Below, one piece after another: positions 4,096 through 28,254 of a stretch of 32,502 bases of DNA. This stretch comes from a virus. Taxonomy: Duplodnaviria; Heunggongvirae; Uroviricota; Caudoviricetes. Numbering within the stretch: position 1 is the stretch's first letter; every line of letters begins with the position of its first letter. The translations under genes and the position numbers were made by a program. The notes under the pieces are model-generated. The model was not told the origin of the DNA. It did not search any database and worked only from the letters and a program-made list of their open reading frames with translations. The DNA is taken from IMG/VR virus record IMGVR_UViG_2636415833_000004; one strand, written 5' to 3'.

Positions 4096-4559
4096 GAATA
4101 ACCCCGCTCCCATTCGCTGGAAACCAGCGCGTGTAACTGGCCGGGCGAATAACGCCAGGCATCCCGTAACTGCATAAATTCGGCACAAAACTCGCTACAA
4201 AACCACTTTTCAGGATTCCCACGGCAAAACAGCAAAAAGCCGATAACCCCGGCGATGTCGTATTTTTTCCCCGCGTACAGGCGGTAAAAACTGGCGATTT
4301 CCTGCGGGCTGGCGCTGATTTCGATCAAGTCCCATTTGTCAGAGGGTAAAGGCATTGTTTTAGCCCTGACCCCGCCATCACGGAACGATGACGAATAGCA
4401 GGTAAAATCCGTGCCGACGTCGTAGCACTGCGGCCCCACGGCGATTTCACAATGTGAATACGGACTGCGGGTAACAAGGCGTGTCACCCAGTCCGCCAGG
4501 CTGGCTAGTCCGTTGTGATCGCTGCGGCCACGATAAAACGCAATAAACACCGCGTTCAT
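4071..4559 (-). CDS. putative permuted papain-fold (YiiX/YaeF, NlpC/P60-superfamily-like) cysteine peptidase/amidase
   Basis: Track start 4568 is GTG; ATG at 4559 forms ATGA overlap with tail fibre assembly gene stop; conserved-looking His (YSHCEIAV) before Cys (WFCSEFC), the order typical of permuted NlpC/P60 enzymes; assignment from memory. Confidence 0.4.
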   Translation of the reverse strand: MNAVFIAFYRGRSDHNGLASLADWVTRLVTRSPYSHCEIAVGPQCYDVGTDFTCYSSSFRDGGVRAKTMPLPSDKWDLIEISASPQEIASFYRLYAGKKYDIAGVIGFLLFCRGNPEKWFCSEFCAEFMQLRDAWRYSPGQLHALVSSEWERGYSWRGVMDS

Positions 4560-21798: not shown

Positions 21799-21830
21799 AA
21801 AAAGGGCAGATTTGAACTGCCCATTATCTT
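21797..21830 (-). terminator. rho-independent terminator between convergent ogr-like and cargo genes, strongest on minus strand
   Basis: GGGCAG (21804..21809) / CTGCCC (21817..21822) stem with 7-nt loop; A7 on plus strand gives U7 on minus strand directly after the hairpin. Confidence 0.65.
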
Positions 21831-23151
21831 ATTCAGTCCCCTTTTCCATCTGCTGTGGCTTATCTGCAACTACAGAGGGTTTAGCCTTACGATCAAGGAT
21901 ATTTTTAACATAGTTTACATTATCAATCGAAGAATCAAGAAATTTAGAAAAAGCTTTAGAGTTTAACATTTCCATCCATGGTGTTGAGTGATCATCACCT
22001 TGGACAAATCTTAATGGGGCTTCCTCTAGACGGGTTAAAGCAGAATCAAACAACCGAGTAGCGAATGTTCCATCATCAAGTTGCGATGCTTCTTTTCTGT
22101 AACCCTCATATGCTTTTGCAACGGCAGACTTAAAGGCATAATCTTCTGCTAGCTTAAATCTTTGATTAATTTGCTTTGTAGACAACCACGCAAACCAAAG
22201 CGGCGCGCCGATACTAAATATGGATAGTATTAATTGCGTTGCAATCACTATTGCACTGGTATCTGGTTGCGCTAAAACATTGGATAATGCTTTTAACCTT
22301 TCATAACCAACAAACCCACCGGCAATTAATGCCGCAGATAATCCTGCTACCCATAAACGAATGCTACAGTTTAACTTATTCGCTTTGATCTCAAAAGCTC
22401 CCGCTAACCCTTTTGAAGTCGAAGCACGAATAGCTTCCTCACATTTCGAAAGATAATTTTCTGCGATCTCTTTTTTTGCATTTAACTCTTCTTTTATCTT
22501 TTCCCCTTCGTTTAGACAAACATCCATTAAGACATTCGAATGAGATGCTTCTTCTTTTGCCTTTAAAATGTACTCTTTTATTTCCGTTAATTCTGCCTTG
22601 TATTTATTTAACTCTTCCATATATACCGGTAGATTATCAGCTGCGGCATATGCATCGTTAATCAATTTAATTTTACCTTCCAGTGTTTCAATTTCTGGAG
22701 TAGCTTGTCTTACTCTTGCATCCATACTCCGTATTTTACGTGCTAATTTCTGAGGTACGGCATCCGTATCCTGGAGTCGGTCGAAGGAAATCAAAGAATC
22801 TAAAAATGAAGATATATATGTCATGGTCATTAAAAATGAAGGAATCGCTTGTACACCATTTCCATTATAAAAGCTAGGAGCAAGGTCAGAATGTACCTTT
22901 GTTACGACTTTTCTTACATAGTCGAGTTCATCTAGTTCGAAATCAGTTAATTTAAGCATCTCTAATTTTTTTGACTTCTCGATCATTCTTTCAATATAGT
23001 CAGAAAAGTCTTTTGGCAACATTACAGGATGACCGATGCCAAATGCTTCTATAAGCCATTTATTTTTATGCCCATATGATTTTTCAGACTCATCAAAATA
23101 ATCTTTTAATTTATCTAGAGCATTTATAAATTCATTTAACTCAGCGTACAT
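21829..23151 (-). CDS. hypothetical coiled-coil / two-transmembrane-helix protein; candidate accessory (defence or exclusion) gene
   Basis: 440 aa, ATG with GAGGT 5 nt upstream; visibly AT-rich; coiled-coil N-terminal half, two hydrophobic helices (aa ~265-283 and ~299-323), ~115-aa C-terminal domain; no similarity recognised to phage core proteins. Confidence 0.75.
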   Translation of the reverse strand: MYAELNEFINALDKLKDYFDESEKSYGHKNKWLIEAFGIGHPVMLPKDFSDYIERMIEKSKKLEMLKLTDFELDELDYVRKVVTKVHSDLAPSFYNGNGVQAIPSFLMTMTYISSFLDSLISFDRLQDTDAVPQKLARKIRSMDARVRQATPEIETLEGKIKLINDAYAAADNLPVYMEELNKYKAELTEIKEYILKAKEEASHSNVLMDVCLNEGEKIKEELNAKKEIAENYLSKCEEAIRASTSKGLAGAFEIKANKLNCSIRLWVAGLSAALIAGGFVGYERLKALSNVLAQPDTSAIVIATQLILSIFSIGAPLWFAWLSTKQINQRFKLAEDYAFKSAVAKAYEGYRKEASQLDDGTFATRLFDSALTRLEEAPLRFVQGDDHSTPWMEMLNSKAFSKFLDSSIDNVNYVKNILDRKAKPSVVADKPQQMEKGTE

Positions 23152-23321: not shown

Positions 23322-25886
23322 TCATACGGTTACCACAGCCCGCCAGCGCGCCATCAGTTCCACAGTTTGTTTTTTCGCCAGCACACGCCGCCACGGCTGG
23401 AACGTGTCAATCAGGATCAGTTCGCCGGTGTTCATGTTAGCCCGGTAAACGTTGTCAATAACTGTCGCCTGTCCGCCTTGCGCCAGTGCCAGCGATTGCG
23501 CGCGGCCCAGCGGTATTTTGCGCAATTTCGCCCACTCCATGACGCGCGCGGCCAGTTCTGCCGCTGCAGCCGTGACCGGTTTTTCAGTCTCGCGAATGAC
23601 CGCCGCCGCACGTAAATAATTTTCTGCGCGCAGCTGGTCCGCGCCCGAACAGTCCGCCGTCGCTAATTGATTCGCCAGCGCTTCGAACTCGTCAGCAGCC
23701 GATTGTTTACGCTGTTTTTTGTGCGTCAGACACTCAGCGCGCAGGCGTTTGCGTTGTTCCCGTGTCAATTTGCCGATCAGAACCTGTTCGGGATCTCCCG
23801 GTGGCGGCGCACCGCTGTTTTTCTCTCCCAAAAAGTCCGCTTCACTGTTTATATTTTGTTCATCTTTTGCTGTTTTTTCATGCTCCGTACAGTTATTGAC
23901 ACGAGTCCTAGCGGGCGCAGACGCGCCCTTAAGGTCAAAAGATGAACAGCCATCACCGGGGCGCTCCGCGCTCTCCGGCGATTTTTTAACAATGCGAAAA
24001 TCCCGCAACCTGGTTATTACCGGCGGGATATTAATCAGCGGCATAAATACACCGCGGATAACCGTCAGATATTCGCCCCAGCTGTTAGGCTCCGGTTTAT
24101 CCTGATAAAACGTGCGCAACGGTAAATCCGCGCGTTTTGCCAGCGGTCCGCCCATGAGATTAACAAACCCGCCCCAATCCCCCGCGTCCGCTGCGGCGTG
24201 GATCTCGGCAAACAGCGGATTAATCTGATCAGCGGCCTGTTGATTCCCCAGCCTCCGCAGTTCGCGGTACACCGACACCGGCACACCGCCCAAAAACTGG
24301 AACTGCCTGATCCCCCACGTAGACGCCCACGCGGTCGCATGTTGCGCCGTGTCTTTCAGTGGACGTCCGCTTTCGTCGTCGCGCTCATTATCCAGCGCGT
24401 AACCGTCGATATTTTTAGAGACGTATTTGACGATATAGCCCGTAGCGGTTCCCCGCTCGGGATCAATCGGTTTGAAATCGAAACGCGGCTGTATGCCGTG
24501 TTTCGTCGTTAATTCGTCGGCGTCCTCAGCTGTTGCGTAACGCTGCATGACGTCGCGTAGCGCCTCCTGATGCTCCGGCAGAGTGAATAACAGGCCGTGC
24601 CAGTGCGGCGTTGCGTCGTGATGCGCCTCGGCTACACGTAAGCCAAAAGCGCCGATTTCCTGGCGCGCCAGCTCGGCGCGGATACGCTGCCAAATGGTAT
24701 TCAGGTATTTTTGAGACTCGCGCGGGCTAGCGCCTTGCCACTTAGGATTACGATGACCAAACGCGGTAAACGCGTGATATTTTGACGGCGCGGTAATAGT
24801 AAAAAAGCTGCCGACAAATCCCTGCTCATTGGCTACTCGCTCAAAACCGCCGATTCGCGTCATAAGCTCGGTGCGGCGTATCGCTGGATTGGACGCGCTT
24901 TTTTCTATCTGCTCCAGCAGTGAAAAACGCTCGCCTGATTCAACGTCTTCTATTTCCAGTCTTGACATGATGTCGCGATTACGCTCGCGACGCTCCCGCC
25001 ACGCATTCACGCGTTCTTTACTACAATAGGTTGACACGCTGCGGCGCACGTCGCCCAGGGAGATCCGCAAATGCTCCCGCCAGCGCACGGCGTAACGCAG
25101 TAAATTGCGGTTCCAGTAGCGCGCGTCGATCATTTTGCTGATCGCTGCCGCCAGCTCGTCGGGCAACAAGCGTTTTTTGTTTGCCCTTGCCGCCGTGACG
25201 TGAAAAACGTTAGCCAACGTTTTCAATTCAGCGTAAAACCGCCGGCCAGTTTCGATTTCGTCCAGGTGTTCACAATCTGCGGCAATTTCTGCCAGTGTGG
25301 CGTTTGCGTAAATTGCGACGTCCTGCGCCAGTAATTCAACATCCTCCGGCGAATAATCAGGCAGTGTGTCGAAACGACGGATCAGATCGGTGAGTTGTTC
25401 AAAATTGTGATAGAGCGGCTCAAGGCCAACAAACGGCGTTTCATAAACCCGCCCAGCATTGCGGGGCGGGCTTATGGAATACTGCTGCATAACGGCGGAA
25501 ATGTGGATTAATTCGCGGCTGGCGATATCTCGCAGCGCCAGCGCCGCGACGTGTCGCCCCTGCTTTTCGTGAGAACGTTCAACGCGCGCCATCATGCGGC
25601 GGCGGATGAATGTCGGATATGGCTGAAAAGTGGATTTTACACGCTGCCAGAATTCGTATTCTGCGGCGAACTCCTGCGGATCATGTTTCGGCGTCCGGTC
25701 AACGCTAATTGCTGCGCGCGGGGCGTTCCACGCGTATGGATACAGTGTAGTGTCTGCGCCGCTCCCCAGGAACGGGGGCGGCGGTGTTGGGGCGTAGCGT
25801 CCGCGCGTCAATTGATAGACGCCAGCCACAGAGCAGCGAATGGATCGATTTCGTTGTAATAGGCGGTCATAAATCCGCCTCTTCAA
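23322..25886 (-). CDS. A: replication initiation protein, P2 gpA-like (rolling-circle HUH endonuclease); true start uncertain
   Basis: YAWNAPR near N-terminus, TPHWHGLLF (HUH) and YIVKYVSKNIDGYALD (active-site Tyr) match remembered P2 A motifs; track start 25886 is TTG, an internal GTG near 25829 fits the P2 alignment. Confidence 0.85.
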   Translation of the reverse strand: MKRRIYDRLLQRNRSIRCSVAGVYQLTRGRYAPTPPPPFLGSGADTTLYPYAWNAPRAAISVDRTPKHDPQEFAAEYEFWQRVKSTFQPYPTFIRRRMMARVERSHEKQGRHVAALALRDIASRELIHISAVMQQYSISPPRNAGRVYETPFVGLEPLYHNFEQLTDLIRRFDTLPDYSPEDVELLAQDVAIYANATLAEIAADCEHLDEIETGRRFYAELKTLANVFHVTAARANKKRLLPDELAAAISKMIDARYWNRNLLRYAVRWREHLRISLGDVRRSVSTYCSKERVNAWRERRERNRDIMSRLEIEDVESGERFSLLEQIEKSASNPAIRRTELMTRIGGFERVANEQGFVGSFFTITAPSKYHAFTAFGHRNPKWQGASPRESQKYLNTIWQRIRAELARQEIGAFGLRVAEAHHDATPHWHGLLFTLPEHQEALRDVMQRYATAEDADELTTKHGIQPRFDFKPIDPERGTATGYIVKYVSKNIDGYALDNERDDESGRPLKDTAQHATAWASTWGIRQFQFLGGVPVSVYRELRRLGNQQAADQINPLFAEIHAAADAGDWGGFVNLMGGPLAKRADLPLRTFYQDKPEPNSWGEYLTVIRGVFMPLINIPPVITRLRDFRIVKKSPESAERPGDGCSSFDLKGASAPARTRVNNCTEHEKTAKDEQNINSEADFLGEKNSGAPPPGDPEQVLIGKLTREQRKRLRAECLTHKKQRKQSAADEFEALANQLATADCSGADQLRAENYLRAAAVIRETEKPVTAAAAELAARVMEWAKLRKIPLGRAQSLALAQGGQATVIDNVYRANMNTGELILIDTFQPWRRVLAKKQTVELMARWRAVVTV

Positions 25887-26271
25887 TCATGCGGTAAGCG
25901 ATCGCGTAAAATACGGGCGAATGAGGGTGCGCGGTAAAAAGCTCTTCAAGAAAGTCAGGGTAAATACTCAGTTTAAGCAGATCACCTCTTGTCAGACCCC
26001 AATTAATAAGCACATAGCTATACACAAATAACAGATCAAAACTCAGCAAAACATCGCCAGTCCCCGTCTTATAAACATCAGTAATCACCCCGGCGACACA
26101 AGCCCCTGTCGCCGTTGGCGGATTCTTTCCTGTATCGTCAAAAACAAACTCACGGATAAATAAAAAATCTTCTTTTATATAATCCCCCTCATTTAACAGC
26201 ACCGCGCGTCTTTCGCGTTTTAACACTGGCTGAAAATAATCCGGCTGAATCGCTACTATGTGAATTGTCAT
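25867..26271 (-). CDS. hypothetical early-operon protein
   Basis: 134 aa, ATG start ATGA-coupled to upstream ORF, directly upstream of A. Confidence 0.5.
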   Translation of the reverse strand: MTIHIVAIQPDYFQPVLKRERRAVLLNEGDYIKEDFLFIREFVFDDTGKNPPTATGACVAGVITDVYKTGTGDVLLSFDLLFVYSYVLINWGLTRGDLLKLSIYPDFLEELFTAHPHSPVFYAIAYRMIEEADL

Positions 26272-26465
26272 TCCGCACCCCTCAAATCAATATTGTCACC
26301 GGGTAAAACTCTAATTGCCTGATATCGCGTGGAACGCGTGATCTGTTCATTGCGGTAAAACCCGTCAATAAACACTTCGGCATCAATTAAATACTGCTCA
26401 TTCTTTTTTATTTCCCATATGTCAAATACACGGGTAATGACGGCGGGCGCACTAGTCCTGGTCAT
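26268..26465 (-). CDS. hypothetical small protein
   Basis: Track start 26561 is GTG inside the dam C-terminal region; ATG at 26465 gives 65 aa with a 14-nt overlap to dam stop. Confidence 0.35.
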   Translation of the reverse strand: MTRTSAPAVITRVFDIWEIKKNEQYLIDAEVFIDGFYRNEQITRSTRYQAIRVLPGDNIDLRGAE

Positions 26466-27468
26466 AGAATTCACTCCCCGCGCTCGCACAAAGATCGACA
26501 CTGTCACAAGCTCCGCAGCCGCCATCAGGGCAACCCCAAACCGTGCGGCGTTGGGTGTCACAACTACACGGACGGCCAGTAATCAGACGACCCCCGCAAT
26601 ATTCACAATGTGGGATATATCCGATCACTTCTTTTGCAGTCGCGCGTTTGCTGGTATTGGCACTGACTGACCGTTGAACATTAATTTCCTGAAATGTAAA
26701 CGACACGTATATTTCTCGCGCGGCGGGTGTGTCGCTGTTTGAAATAACAACTTTTGCAGCACCACGCGCACTTATTTCTAATAATTTCTGAACTAAGCGG
26801 CAGTGATCGTCCCGCGTAAATCTCTGTCCGTAATACGTGGTAAAGTCTGCGGTTTCGCTGGCGGGTAAATATGGCGGATCGCAGTAAATAACGAGATTAG
26901 GCCCGAATGTCAGCATTGATAATGTGTCATCAAAATTAAGATTGAGAAACACTGCGTTTGTATCATTCGCCTTTTCTGCAAACCGCCGGATCTCCTCTTC
27001 GGGAAAATACGGCGCTGTCTTATGTTGACCAAACGGAACATTGTATTCCAGTTTATTGTTATAGCGGCAAACGCCGTTATAACCGTGCCGATTCAAATAG
27101 AGAAACCGCGCCGACTGCATTAACGACAATCTCAGTGATAAGGGGCGGCGACCGCATTCGTGGTAACTTGTATTTAGTTCGTTAAATTCTTTGCGAATCT
27201 TTAAATAATATTCTTTTGAATTACCTTCTTTAAATAATTCCCGTGCAACGTCAATAAATAGATTAGTGCGATGCTTCACGTTTTCATACGTATTTATCAG
27301 ATCTGAATTAATATCAGCTAAAACATACTTATCATAACTTGTGTTTAAAAATACCGAACCGCCGCCAACAAATGGTTCCATCAGACAATAACCCTTTGGC
27401 AAGTGCGGCAGCAGCTCAGGCAAAGCGCGAGTTTTTCCACCTGCCCACTTCAAAAACGGTCTGATCAT
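26452..27468 (-). CDS. dam: DNA adenine methyltransferase (Dam-like, N6-adenine) with C-terminal Cys-rich extension
   Basis: N-terminal FLKWAGGKTR (AdoMet motif I) and DPPY catalytic motif; about 60 extra C-terminal residues with CEYCGG...CSCD...CPDGGCGACD. Confidence 0.8.
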   Translation of the reverse strand: MIRPFLKWAGGKTRALPELLPHLPKGYCLMEPFVGGGSVFLNTSYDKYVLADINSDLINTYENVKHRTNLFIDVARELFKEGNSKEYYLKIRKEFNELNTSYHECGRRPLSLRLSLMQSARFLYLNRHGYNGVCRYNNKLEYNVPFGQHKTAPYFPEEEIRRFAEKANDTNAVFLNLNFDDTLSMLTFGPNLVIYCDPPYLPASETADFTTYYGQRFTRDDHCRLVQKLLEISARGAAKVVISNSDTPAAREIYVSFTFQEINVQRSVSANTSKRATAKEVIGYIPHCEYCGGRLITGRPCSCDTQRRTVWGCPDGGCGACDSVDLCASAGSEFYDQD

Positions 27469-27686
27469 TTTTTATATTCCTTGTTATATCGTTCGTGAGT
27501 TAATAAAGTCCATTGCTGGCCGTCGTTTTTACTCAGTAACCGCCAACATCTGCCGATTGCAATTGACAGATAACCAGTCGCCAGCCGCCGCACTTTATCG
27601 CGGCGACCCTGTCGGAATTCATTAATTAAATTGTGTGCCTGATCAACAACGCAGGCGGGGCAATTATCATTTTTCCGGCGAATCAT
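27465..27686 (-). CDS. hypothetical small protein with CxxC motif
   Basis: 73 aa, ATG start, ATGA-coupled to dam. Confidence 0.4.
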   Translation of the reverse strand: MIRRKNDNCPACVVDQAHNLINEFRQGRRDKVRRLATGYLSIAIGRCWRLLSKNDGQQWTLLTHERYNKEYKK

Positions 27687-28254
27687 GATTCACCTTCTCC
27701 GCGCGAACGGCAGAAATGTTTTTGATATCGTCGCTTAATCTGGCAATCTGGTTAATAACGTCATTCATTGCGTGATGCGGATGTTCCAGAACCGCGCGCA
27801 TTGATGAATGACCGCATATTGTCAGCGCGATTTCTGCAACCGTTCTAACGTCGCGAGCATTCCAGAAATTCCAGGCCGGACGAATCCCTGTCAGGCGCAT
27901 TGAGTGATAAATAACTGGTAAATCAAAATCAGTGCCGCGCGCCCATATTTTTAAATTGTCTGAATCATCACAAAAACAACAAAAATCGTTCAACTTATAG
28001 AGCGACTCTGATAAAGGCAAGCCAGCATCAGATACAAGCTCATCTCTTGCGCATAAATTTTGCTTCATCCACCATTTAACAGTATCCGCACCAATTGTCG
28101 CCCCTTTGTATTGAGCATCAGCAACATTGACGGGAATATAAATAGACATCCCAATCTCGCCAGTTCGGGGATCGAAAAATGCGGCAGCAATAGAAACAAT
28201 TGCGGCAGTTGGTTTATTGTCTAATGTTTCAATGTCAATCATTATATTATTCAT
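27667..28254 (-). CDS. 3'-5' exonuclease, DnaQ-like (DEDD family)
   Basis: N-terminal MIDIETLD Exo I motif and conserved His/Asp near C-terminus (HHAMNDV). Confidence 0.65.
   Translation of the reverse strand: MNNIMIDIETLDNKPTAAIVSIAAAFFDPRTGEIGMSIYIPVNVADAQYKGATIGADTVKWWMKQNLCARDELVSDAGLPLSESLYKLNDFCCFCDDSDNLKIWARGTDFDLPVIYHSMRLTGIRPAWNFWNARDVRTVAEIALTICGHSSMRAVLEHPHHAMNDVINQIARLSDDIKNISAVRAEKVNHDSPEK

Follow-up and report, generated by a model that had tools for sequence, protein, structure and literature searches.

The virus record IMGVR_UViG_2636415833_000004 of IMG/VR, a stretch of 32,502 nucleotides that is here called the window, belongs to a P2-like temperate phage and carries in its early replication operon a dam gene, coding for a DNA adenine methyltransferase (Dam). 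The enzyme itself is ordinary. Behind its catalytic core stands a C-terminal tail with eight cysteines, which lies outside every family model and which is a real appendage maintained by selection. We consider it rather probable that the protein is an orphan phage Dam methylating GATC, and that the tail, with its Cys residues in two groups, acts as a metal-stabilised accessory adaptor which leaves the specificity of the enzyme unchanged. An earlier reading made from the sequence alone (the sequence-only reading) had drawn attention to this gene as a prophage Dam with a Cys-rich extension. The gene and the parts of its product are the following.

26452..27468, minus strand: dam gene of the P2-like phage, 338 codons plus stop with an ATG start, from the list of open reading frames (ORFs); the coding sequences (CDSs) given by RefSeq in E. 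coli N1420 and Z1323PEC0010 are equal in length.
26614..27468, minus strand: Dam core, residues 1-285, D12 class, alpha-type N6-adenine methyltransferase (PF02086, TIGR00571, PHROG_56, 2g1p).
27121..27162, minus strand: insertion of ~12-14 residues relative to E. coli Dam, at about residues 103-116 (HECGRRPLSLRLSL), seen as a gap in the phmmer alignment to 2g1p.
26869..26880, minus strand: catalytic motif IV DPPY, residues 197-200, read from the sequence and invariant in the 80-sequence alignment A1.
26455..26613, minus strand: C-terminal tail, residues 286-338, without homology to known Dams or to any profile library.
26560..26607, minus strand: Cys group A, C288-x2-C291-x9-C301-x-C303 (HCEYCGGRLITGRPCSC), defined by Cys positions.
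26488..26532, minus strand: Cys group B, C313-x4-C318-x2-C321-x5-C327 (CPDGGCGACDSVDLC), defined by Cys positions.
26455..26487, minus strand: acidic and aromatic C-terminal tip, residues 328-338 (ASAGSEFYDQD), semi-conserved in the clade as SEFYDED, DPLYE and DALYD.

Residues 1-285 can be assigned with confidence, from profile matches and a structural model, to the Dam family (D12 class) of N6-adenine methyltransferases, with an intact catalytic core. PF02086 covers residues 8-267 with 204.7 bits (cut-off 22, E=2.6e-60), TIGR00571 'dam' covers residues 2-282 with 262.6 bits (cut-off 114.85), PHROG_56 covers residues 1-285 (E=4.8e-87), and phmmer aligns residues 3-283 with residues 5-266 of E. 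coli Dam 2g1p (E=3e-68). In an AlphaFold2 model built from 80 homologues the core reaches predicted local distance difference test (pLDDT) values mostly above 90, and its comparison with 2g1p by Foldseek gives a template modelling (TM) score of 0.92, normalised to the target (E=1e-26); the identification of a Dam methylase by the sequence-only reading is thus borne out. That reading had also named two motifs, FLKWAGGK and DPPY, both of which are present. The first, at residues 5-12, had been taken for the S-adenosylmethionine (AdoMet) motif and is instead the N-terminal motif X region of alpha-class Dams, the classical AdoMet glycine loop, of the form FxGxG, being FVGGGS at residues 33-38, likewise invariant in A1. 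FVGGGS and DPPY stand in alpha-class order.

The core is closest in likeness to the GATC-specific Dam of E. coli. The residues by which the E. coli enzyme contacts GATC are reported, in the paper on the 2g1p structure, to be K9, Y119, N120, L122, R124, P134, R137 and Y138; the phmmer alignment to 2g1p has the equivalents of K9, Y119, N120, R124 and P134 kept and three positions changed (L122V, R137Q and Y138H), so that GATC specificity of the window Dam core is probable, not certain. The equivalog model for housekeeping Dam, NF008152, gives 271.9 bits, below its cut-off of 441, which indicates a phage paralogue and not an orthologue of host dam. The insertion at residues ~103-116 belongs to the helical DNA-binding domain and immediately precedes the hairpin that recognises DNA; its columns are variable in A1.

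The window has the genes of a P2-like element, arranged as in P2, among them gpA, Fil, ogr, portal and terminase. In E. coli N1420 a stretch of 97.6% identity is found inside a prophage that has tRNA-Leu, tRNA-Cys and tRNA-Gly beside its integration site and for which RefSeq annotates portal, terminase, ogr and integrase. The IMG/VR viral contig IMGVR_UViG_3300028969_000137, equal in length (32,502 bp), matches the window, and its tail is 100% identical. Eight related loci share with the window an early operon of the P2-like kind, and the relatives are classed as Peduoviridae, the family to which the element belongs. No restriction endonuclease adjoins dam, whose neighbours are a ParE-like ORF, an exonuclease, small ORFs and gpA, and the top PADLOC model for the Dam is an orphan methyltransferase (oMTase PDLC03729, E=1.8e-91). 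Together with the P2-like gene set, these results sustain the earlier proposal of a phage-borne orphan methyltransferase. Furthermore, GATC is over-represented in the window, with 163 sites against 104 +/- 8 expected from dinucleotide-preserving shuffles, so that the presumed target of the Dam is not avoided by the phage.

Homology to Dams stops at about residue 283-285. The alignment to E. coli Dam suggested with the sequence-only reading confirms the extension, to which nothing corresponds in the Dams of E. coli and T4 or in DpnM; its size, put at about 60 residues, has to be reduced to the 53-55 that lie beyond the homology, compared with 12 in E. coli Dam, or to ~43 net of the end that E. 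coli Dam itself possesses. The Cys residues, of which at least eight had been announced, number exactly eight (288, 291, 301, 303, 313, 318, 321 and 327), are conserved, and form two groups of four; 8 are contained in 40 tail residues, compared with 5 in the 285-residue core. Group A is conserved in the 7-sequence alignments A2 and A3, with the CxC pair one column off in the most divergent member, and it holds the position of a CxxCG...CPDCG pair found in most relatives. The unit CPxGGCGxCx5C, that is group B, occurs alone, directly after the Dam core, in the family members P0042, P0098 and P0107, and consequently behaves as a separate module.

Comparison of coding sequences establishes the tail as a genuine coding extension under purifying selection. 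The 1.5-kb query is matched over its full length, at 94-98% identity, by seven complete E. coli genomes, and an eighth carries a 999-nt version of the gene with 58% tail identity and all eight Cys kept. The ratio of nonsynonymous to synonymous substitution (dN/dS, Nei-Gojobori) is 0.13-0.27 in the tail and 0.13-0.23 in the core; against the divergent copy of E. coli 40EC (L002) synonymous sites are saturated and every Cys is retained. The Cys positions, together with P, Y, G and R positions, are conserved over the seven 90%-identity clusters that have this tail type, down to 35% tail identity, and divergent homologues from Salmonella and other sources keep the reading frame.

The relatives among which tails were compared are the 119 nearest full-length clusters (clustered at 90% identity), which have 50-90% identity to the window Dam and come from Escherichia, Salmonella, Citrobacter, Enterobacter, Serratia, Pectobacterium, Erwinia, Yersinia, Edwardsiella and others. 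In 95 of these 119 clusters the protein runs on for 20 residues or more beyond the conserved KEVIG strand; at least 4 tail Cys are found in 74, a tail opening with CxxC in 69 and a CPxCG in 49, and 24 clusters are almost tail-less at similar core identity. The sequence-only reading had considered that the extension might be common to ordinary Dam enzymes: it is absent from the Dams of E. coli and T4 and from DpnM, yet Cys-rich tails are the norm among the closest relatives (the 74 clusters just mentioned). Several types of tail can be told apart, namely CxxCG...CPDCG with a helix-like stretch behind it, a cluster of 10 Cys, group B by itself, a Cys-free type with WSGFDP, and nearly no tail; the same tail type stands on different core ends (P0011 compared with P0091, P0013 compared with P0053), and some tails are visibly decayed or truncated (P0072, P0080 and P0090). 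The variety of types, the occurrence of the same tail on different cores and the existence of tail-less relatives indicate that the tail is modular, exchangeable and dispensable. All contexts inspected were P2-like early operons.

The eight-Cys tail of the window, with groups A and B together, is one rare version of the variable tail borne by most Dams in this phage group. About seven clusters have this arrangement, as do 7-8 of 5426 complete genomes of E. coli, and the tail profile found it in 2 of the 2.9 million contigs of IMG/VR, including the one that matches the window; a search at the DNA level found it in none of 50,697 phage records. No relative emerged when the species-representative genomes of GTDB were scanned with the tail pattern, a tail-only search of a 5.8-billion-protein collection gave only a 76-aa fragment of the same gene, and the tail profile A3 found no true relative among 1.84 billion protein representatives, so that there is no evidence of the tail as a mobile domain in other proteins. 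One match of the profile, to an apparently eukaryotic repeat protein of 2447 aa, was judged spurious, since 24 short stretches were matched.

The ends of the tails were observed as well. The C-terminal peptide of single-stranded DNA-binding protein (SSB) is DDDIPF, and phage T7 replication proteins have acidic tails. Among the relatives' tails of at least 20 aa, 58 of 95 have F, L or W as the last residue, in most cases with acidic residues before it (...FDDLEAF, ...VDEDEF, ...WESEENPIPL, ...DNPETW), and these acidic and hydrophobic tips resemble the SSB and T7 tails; the window tip, SEFYDQD, fits only loosely. Two relatives serve as examples of tails with such ends.

4330..4472 of locus L006: tail of the phiT5282H Dam.
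4230..4375 of locus L008: tail of the SW3 Dam.

Conservation of eight Cys residues under purifying selection makes metal binding the natural inference, and the occurrence of group B alone elsewhere, together with the positional equivalence of group A to the CxxCG...CPDCG pair, suggests two separate four-Cys sites. Each group would then bind a metal, most likely Zn(II), the default candidate. The statement of the sequence-only reading that the Cys are arranged like a zinc ribbon is not supported: there is only one classical zinc-ribbon knuckle (C288-EY-C291-G), its presumed partner is CxC, group B has the form Cx4Cx2Cx5C, no zinc-ribbon family is matched, and the tail pLDDT is below 50.

It has also been considered that group B holds a [4Fe-4S] cluster in place of zinc, which would make the enzyme a redox- or iron-sensitive DNA methylase. 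The spacing C-xn-C-x2-C-x5-C is that of the [4Fe-4S] ligands in endonuclease III/MutY, WhiB-like proteins, AddB, Cas4 and Dna2, and it is reproduced by C318-x2-C321-x5-C327 with C313 upstream; the first spacing, however, is of 4 residues compared with 6 in endonuclease III. The GCGACDSVDLC of group B can be likened to RCGSCIIEDLC, the cluster loop of E. coli endonuclease III, but such likeness in a short motif arises easily by chance, and turns of the CPxxGC and CGxC types are typical of zinc knuckles too. That group B is a self-contained four-Cys unit in other family members would suit an iron-sulfur cluster, yet no iron-sulfur family is matched in Pfam or PDB, and the sole weak similarity in PDB is to a small zinc-finger protein (E=1.8). 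We regard an iron-sulfur site as an unlikely but live alternative, and zinc remains the preferred metal for both groups.

As an orphan enzyme with a metal-stabilised adaptor, the window Dam would methylate GATC on replicating phage DNA, and this fast-replicating DNA would be kept fully methylated and so guarded against GATC-cutting restriction enzymes and against hemimethylation-dependent host processes. The tail would be a small adaptor contacting a protein partner, or DNA in a non-specific manner, and might localise or regulate the enzyme during phage replication while leaving the methylated sequence as it is. It is unlikely to set specificity, because the hairpin responsible for recognition belongs to the core, where it largely agrees with that of E. 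coli Dam, and because near-identical cores occur with unrelated tails or with none.

The same observations bear on the idea, which goes back to the altered targeting proposed by the sequence-only reading, that the tail is a domain which binds DNA or modifies specificity, altering the sites, the processivity or the strand preference of methylation. Nucleic acid is a frequent ligand of small Cys4 modules, the last core strand passes directly into the tail, and three positions of DNA contact in E. coli Dam differ in the core, all of which would agree with such a domain. The tail is nevertheless poor in basic residues and has an acidic end, which argues against a simple DNA-binding role, and the finding of unrelated, Cys-free or no tails on near-identical cores is hard to square with sequence recognition. 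Such a function seems to us quite improbable.

Some results weigh against the adaptor itself. The tail has no match in Pfam, NCBIfam or PHROGs even at E<=1, and the comparison of its profile with PDB sequences gave only the small zinc-finger protein already mentioned, which is non-significant. The tail-less relatives indicate that the enzyme as such can do without the tail, and the three changed contact positions make GATC specificity less than certain. AlphaFold gave the tail pLDDT values below 50 both in the full-length run (80 sequences) and in a tail-only run (7 sequences), a result that is uninformative given a shallow alignment and metals that are not modelled. Pfam scans of seven tail types from relatives at E<=10 gave nothing meaningful.

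If the tail were functionless debris of read-through or recombination at a mosaic junction, tolerated as harmless, its extreme variability among relatives, the decayed or truncated versions in P0072, P0080 and P0090 and the failure of AlphaFold to see a fold would find an explanation. This is very unlikely, because the tail dN/dS of 0.13-0.27 is found with synonymous sites saturated, and because eight Cys and several Gly and Pro are conserved to 35% identity, when residues as rare as Cys would not persist by drift. Finally, a sequencing or assembly frameshift in the window contig, which the sequence-only reading had allowed for, can be discarded, since independent assemblies agree on the extension (the seven E. 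coli genomes aligning at 94-98%, the two prophages inspected, N1420 and Z1323PEC0010, in which RefSeq annotates the same 1017-nt CDS as 'DNA adenine methylase', and the IMG/VR contig with its 100% identical tail) and the tail dN/dS speaks for selection.

The adaptor would be encoded among genes of early phage replication, and the surroundings of dam in the window are the following.

27667..28254, minus strand: Rv2179c-like 3'-5' exonuclease.
27465..27686, minus strand: ParE-like 73-aa ORF 5' of dam (PF24732, E=1.8e-17); the gene order is the same in relatives.
26268..26465, minus strand: 65-aa ORF, whose start overlaps the dam stop by 14 nt.
25867..26271, minus strand: 134-aa ORF between dam and gpA, with weak PHROG matches only (phrog_1812; phrog_986 'RNA-binding protein').
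23322..25886, minus strand: gpA replication endonuclease (PF05840, E=6e-98).

Read along the minus strand, the genes are Fil-like and small ORFs, Rv2179c-like exonuclease, ParE-like ORF, dam, 65-aa ORF, 134-aa ORF and gpA. A ribosome-binding site, AAGGAA, is read from the sequence ~10 nt 5' of the dam ATG, and the dam start overlaps the stop of the ParE-like ORF by 4 nt, as ATGA. Both ends of dam are overlapped by neighbouring ORFs, which places the gene in a tightly packed operon, and the 65-aa ORF is probably translationally coupled to it. The ParE-like toxin-domain ORF overlaps the exonuclease gene by 20 nt, with no antitoxin evident, and this arrangement is kept in relatives.

Behind dam, each of the five loci with the eight-Cys tail type (the window, L001, L005, L002 and L013) has a homologue of the 65-aa ORF, and three loci with other tail types (L011, L012 and L006) have unrelated small ORFs in its place. 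By BLASTP the 65-aa ORF has no match to the ORF downstream of dam in phiT5282H, and it has no Pfam, PHROG or PADLOC match. It is possibly linked to the eight-Cys tail type and a candidate partner of it, on a comparison of five loci with three that cannot be separated from common descent or linkage.

A wider proposal is that the Dam tails of P2-like phages form a modular adaptor system, made of metal-binding knuckles, a linker and an acidic tip with a hydrophobic end. Some versions (...WESEENPIPL, ...FDDLEAF) would copy the SSB peptide DDDIPF, and the tips would either anchor adenine methylation at the replisome or vie for the proteins that bind SSB; the eight-Cys version of the window would be a distinct member, in which group B might hold an iron-sulfur cluster and which might act together with the 65-aa ORF. 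We hold this to be a speculative extension with little chance of being right as a whole.

Other observations concern the dam gene and its neighbourhood. Two E. coli type I-E spacers of clustered regularly interspaced short palindromic repeats (CRISPR) match dam at 32 of 32 positions, at 26597..26628 (plus strand) and 27362..27393 (minus strand) of the window. The protospacer at 27362..27393 has a canonical AAG protospacer adjacent motif on the minus strand (spacer strain F3_13_1_3). That at 26597..26628, which corresponds to Dam codons 281-291 at the junction of core and tail, has CCG at its 5' side and AAG at 26630..26628 on the opposite strand, so that a canonical 33-nt prespacer seems to have been inserted 'flipped'; the spacer occurs at 100% identity in dozens of complete E. 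coli genomes, each match annotated CRISPR. In several related P2-like phages a DNA cytosine methyltransferase lies between dam and gpA (L002 2232..3122; L007 4501..5490; L008 4599..5522), and the window is without one. In the relative L013 an ORF at a position similar to that of the 134-aa ORF carries PF12961 (DUF3850), an ASCH/PUA-like domain; a possible reader of modified bases would thereby adjoin the methylase. A 440-aa ORF at 21829..23151 (minus strand), between the ogr-like gene and gpA, matches only PHROG_34659, of unknown function, with very weak PADLOC matches to LmuB and a type I methyltransferase; its position is that of the variable hotspot of P2 tin/old, and it is a possible phage-borne defence gene.

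The Dam genes of P2-like phages are already known and annotated as such, and phage Dams are usually regarded as simple duplicates of the host's Dam with a protective role against restriction. Searches of the open-access literature on a Cys-rich or zinc tail of Dam, on Peduoviridae Dam and on phiT5282H found no description of the tail. In most P2-like phage Dams the C-terminus bears an appendage that is under selection, modular and rapidly exchanged, and that often has four to ten Cys; this suggests that these Dams are targeted or regulated through partners that nobody has looked for. Such partner-mediated control, if true, would be a bacterial counterpart of the accessory zinc modules found on DNA methyltransferases of eukaryotes. 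In practice the consequences are modest: an unannotated domain deserves a family model; the tail also offers a simple experimental handle on the role of a prophage Dam in a host that is already Dam-positive.

Eukaryotic DNMT1 and DNMT3 have Cys-rich zinc modules, CXXC and ADD respectively, appended to cytosine-C5 enzymes, and the ligands of these modules are defined as CpG DNA and histone tails. The comparison with the window Dam is one of analogy only, both having a methyltransferase core and a small non-catalytic Cys-rich module, without sequence relationship. Small zinc-finger proteins of the HVO_2753 type (PDB 9fhl) have closely spaced CxxCG and CPxxG knuckles in common with the tail, at an E value (1.8) from which no homology is to be inferred. 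The housekeeping GATC enzyme of E. coli (2g1p, 4rtj and others) has the same fold and the same motif order as the window Dam, with 40-41% identity in the Foldseek structural alignment; the window enzyme differs from it by the insertion of ~12 residues before the recognition hairpin, by L122V, R137Q and Y138H, and by 55 in place of 12 residues after the last shared strand, with eight Cys among them. Close to the window in organization are the isolated P2-like phages phiT5282H of Enterobacter and SEN4/SEN5 and SW3/SW5/SI7 of Salmonella, in which dam likewise stands in the early operon 5' of the replication endonuclease, at 53-55% identity. All of their Dams have, as in the window, a Cys-containing tail after KEVIGVL, and it is in the form of this tail that they depart from it: those of phiT5282H and SW3 have CxxCG...CPDCG, then a helix and an acidic tip ending in F, and that of SEN5 is a 10-Cys cluster ending in ETW.

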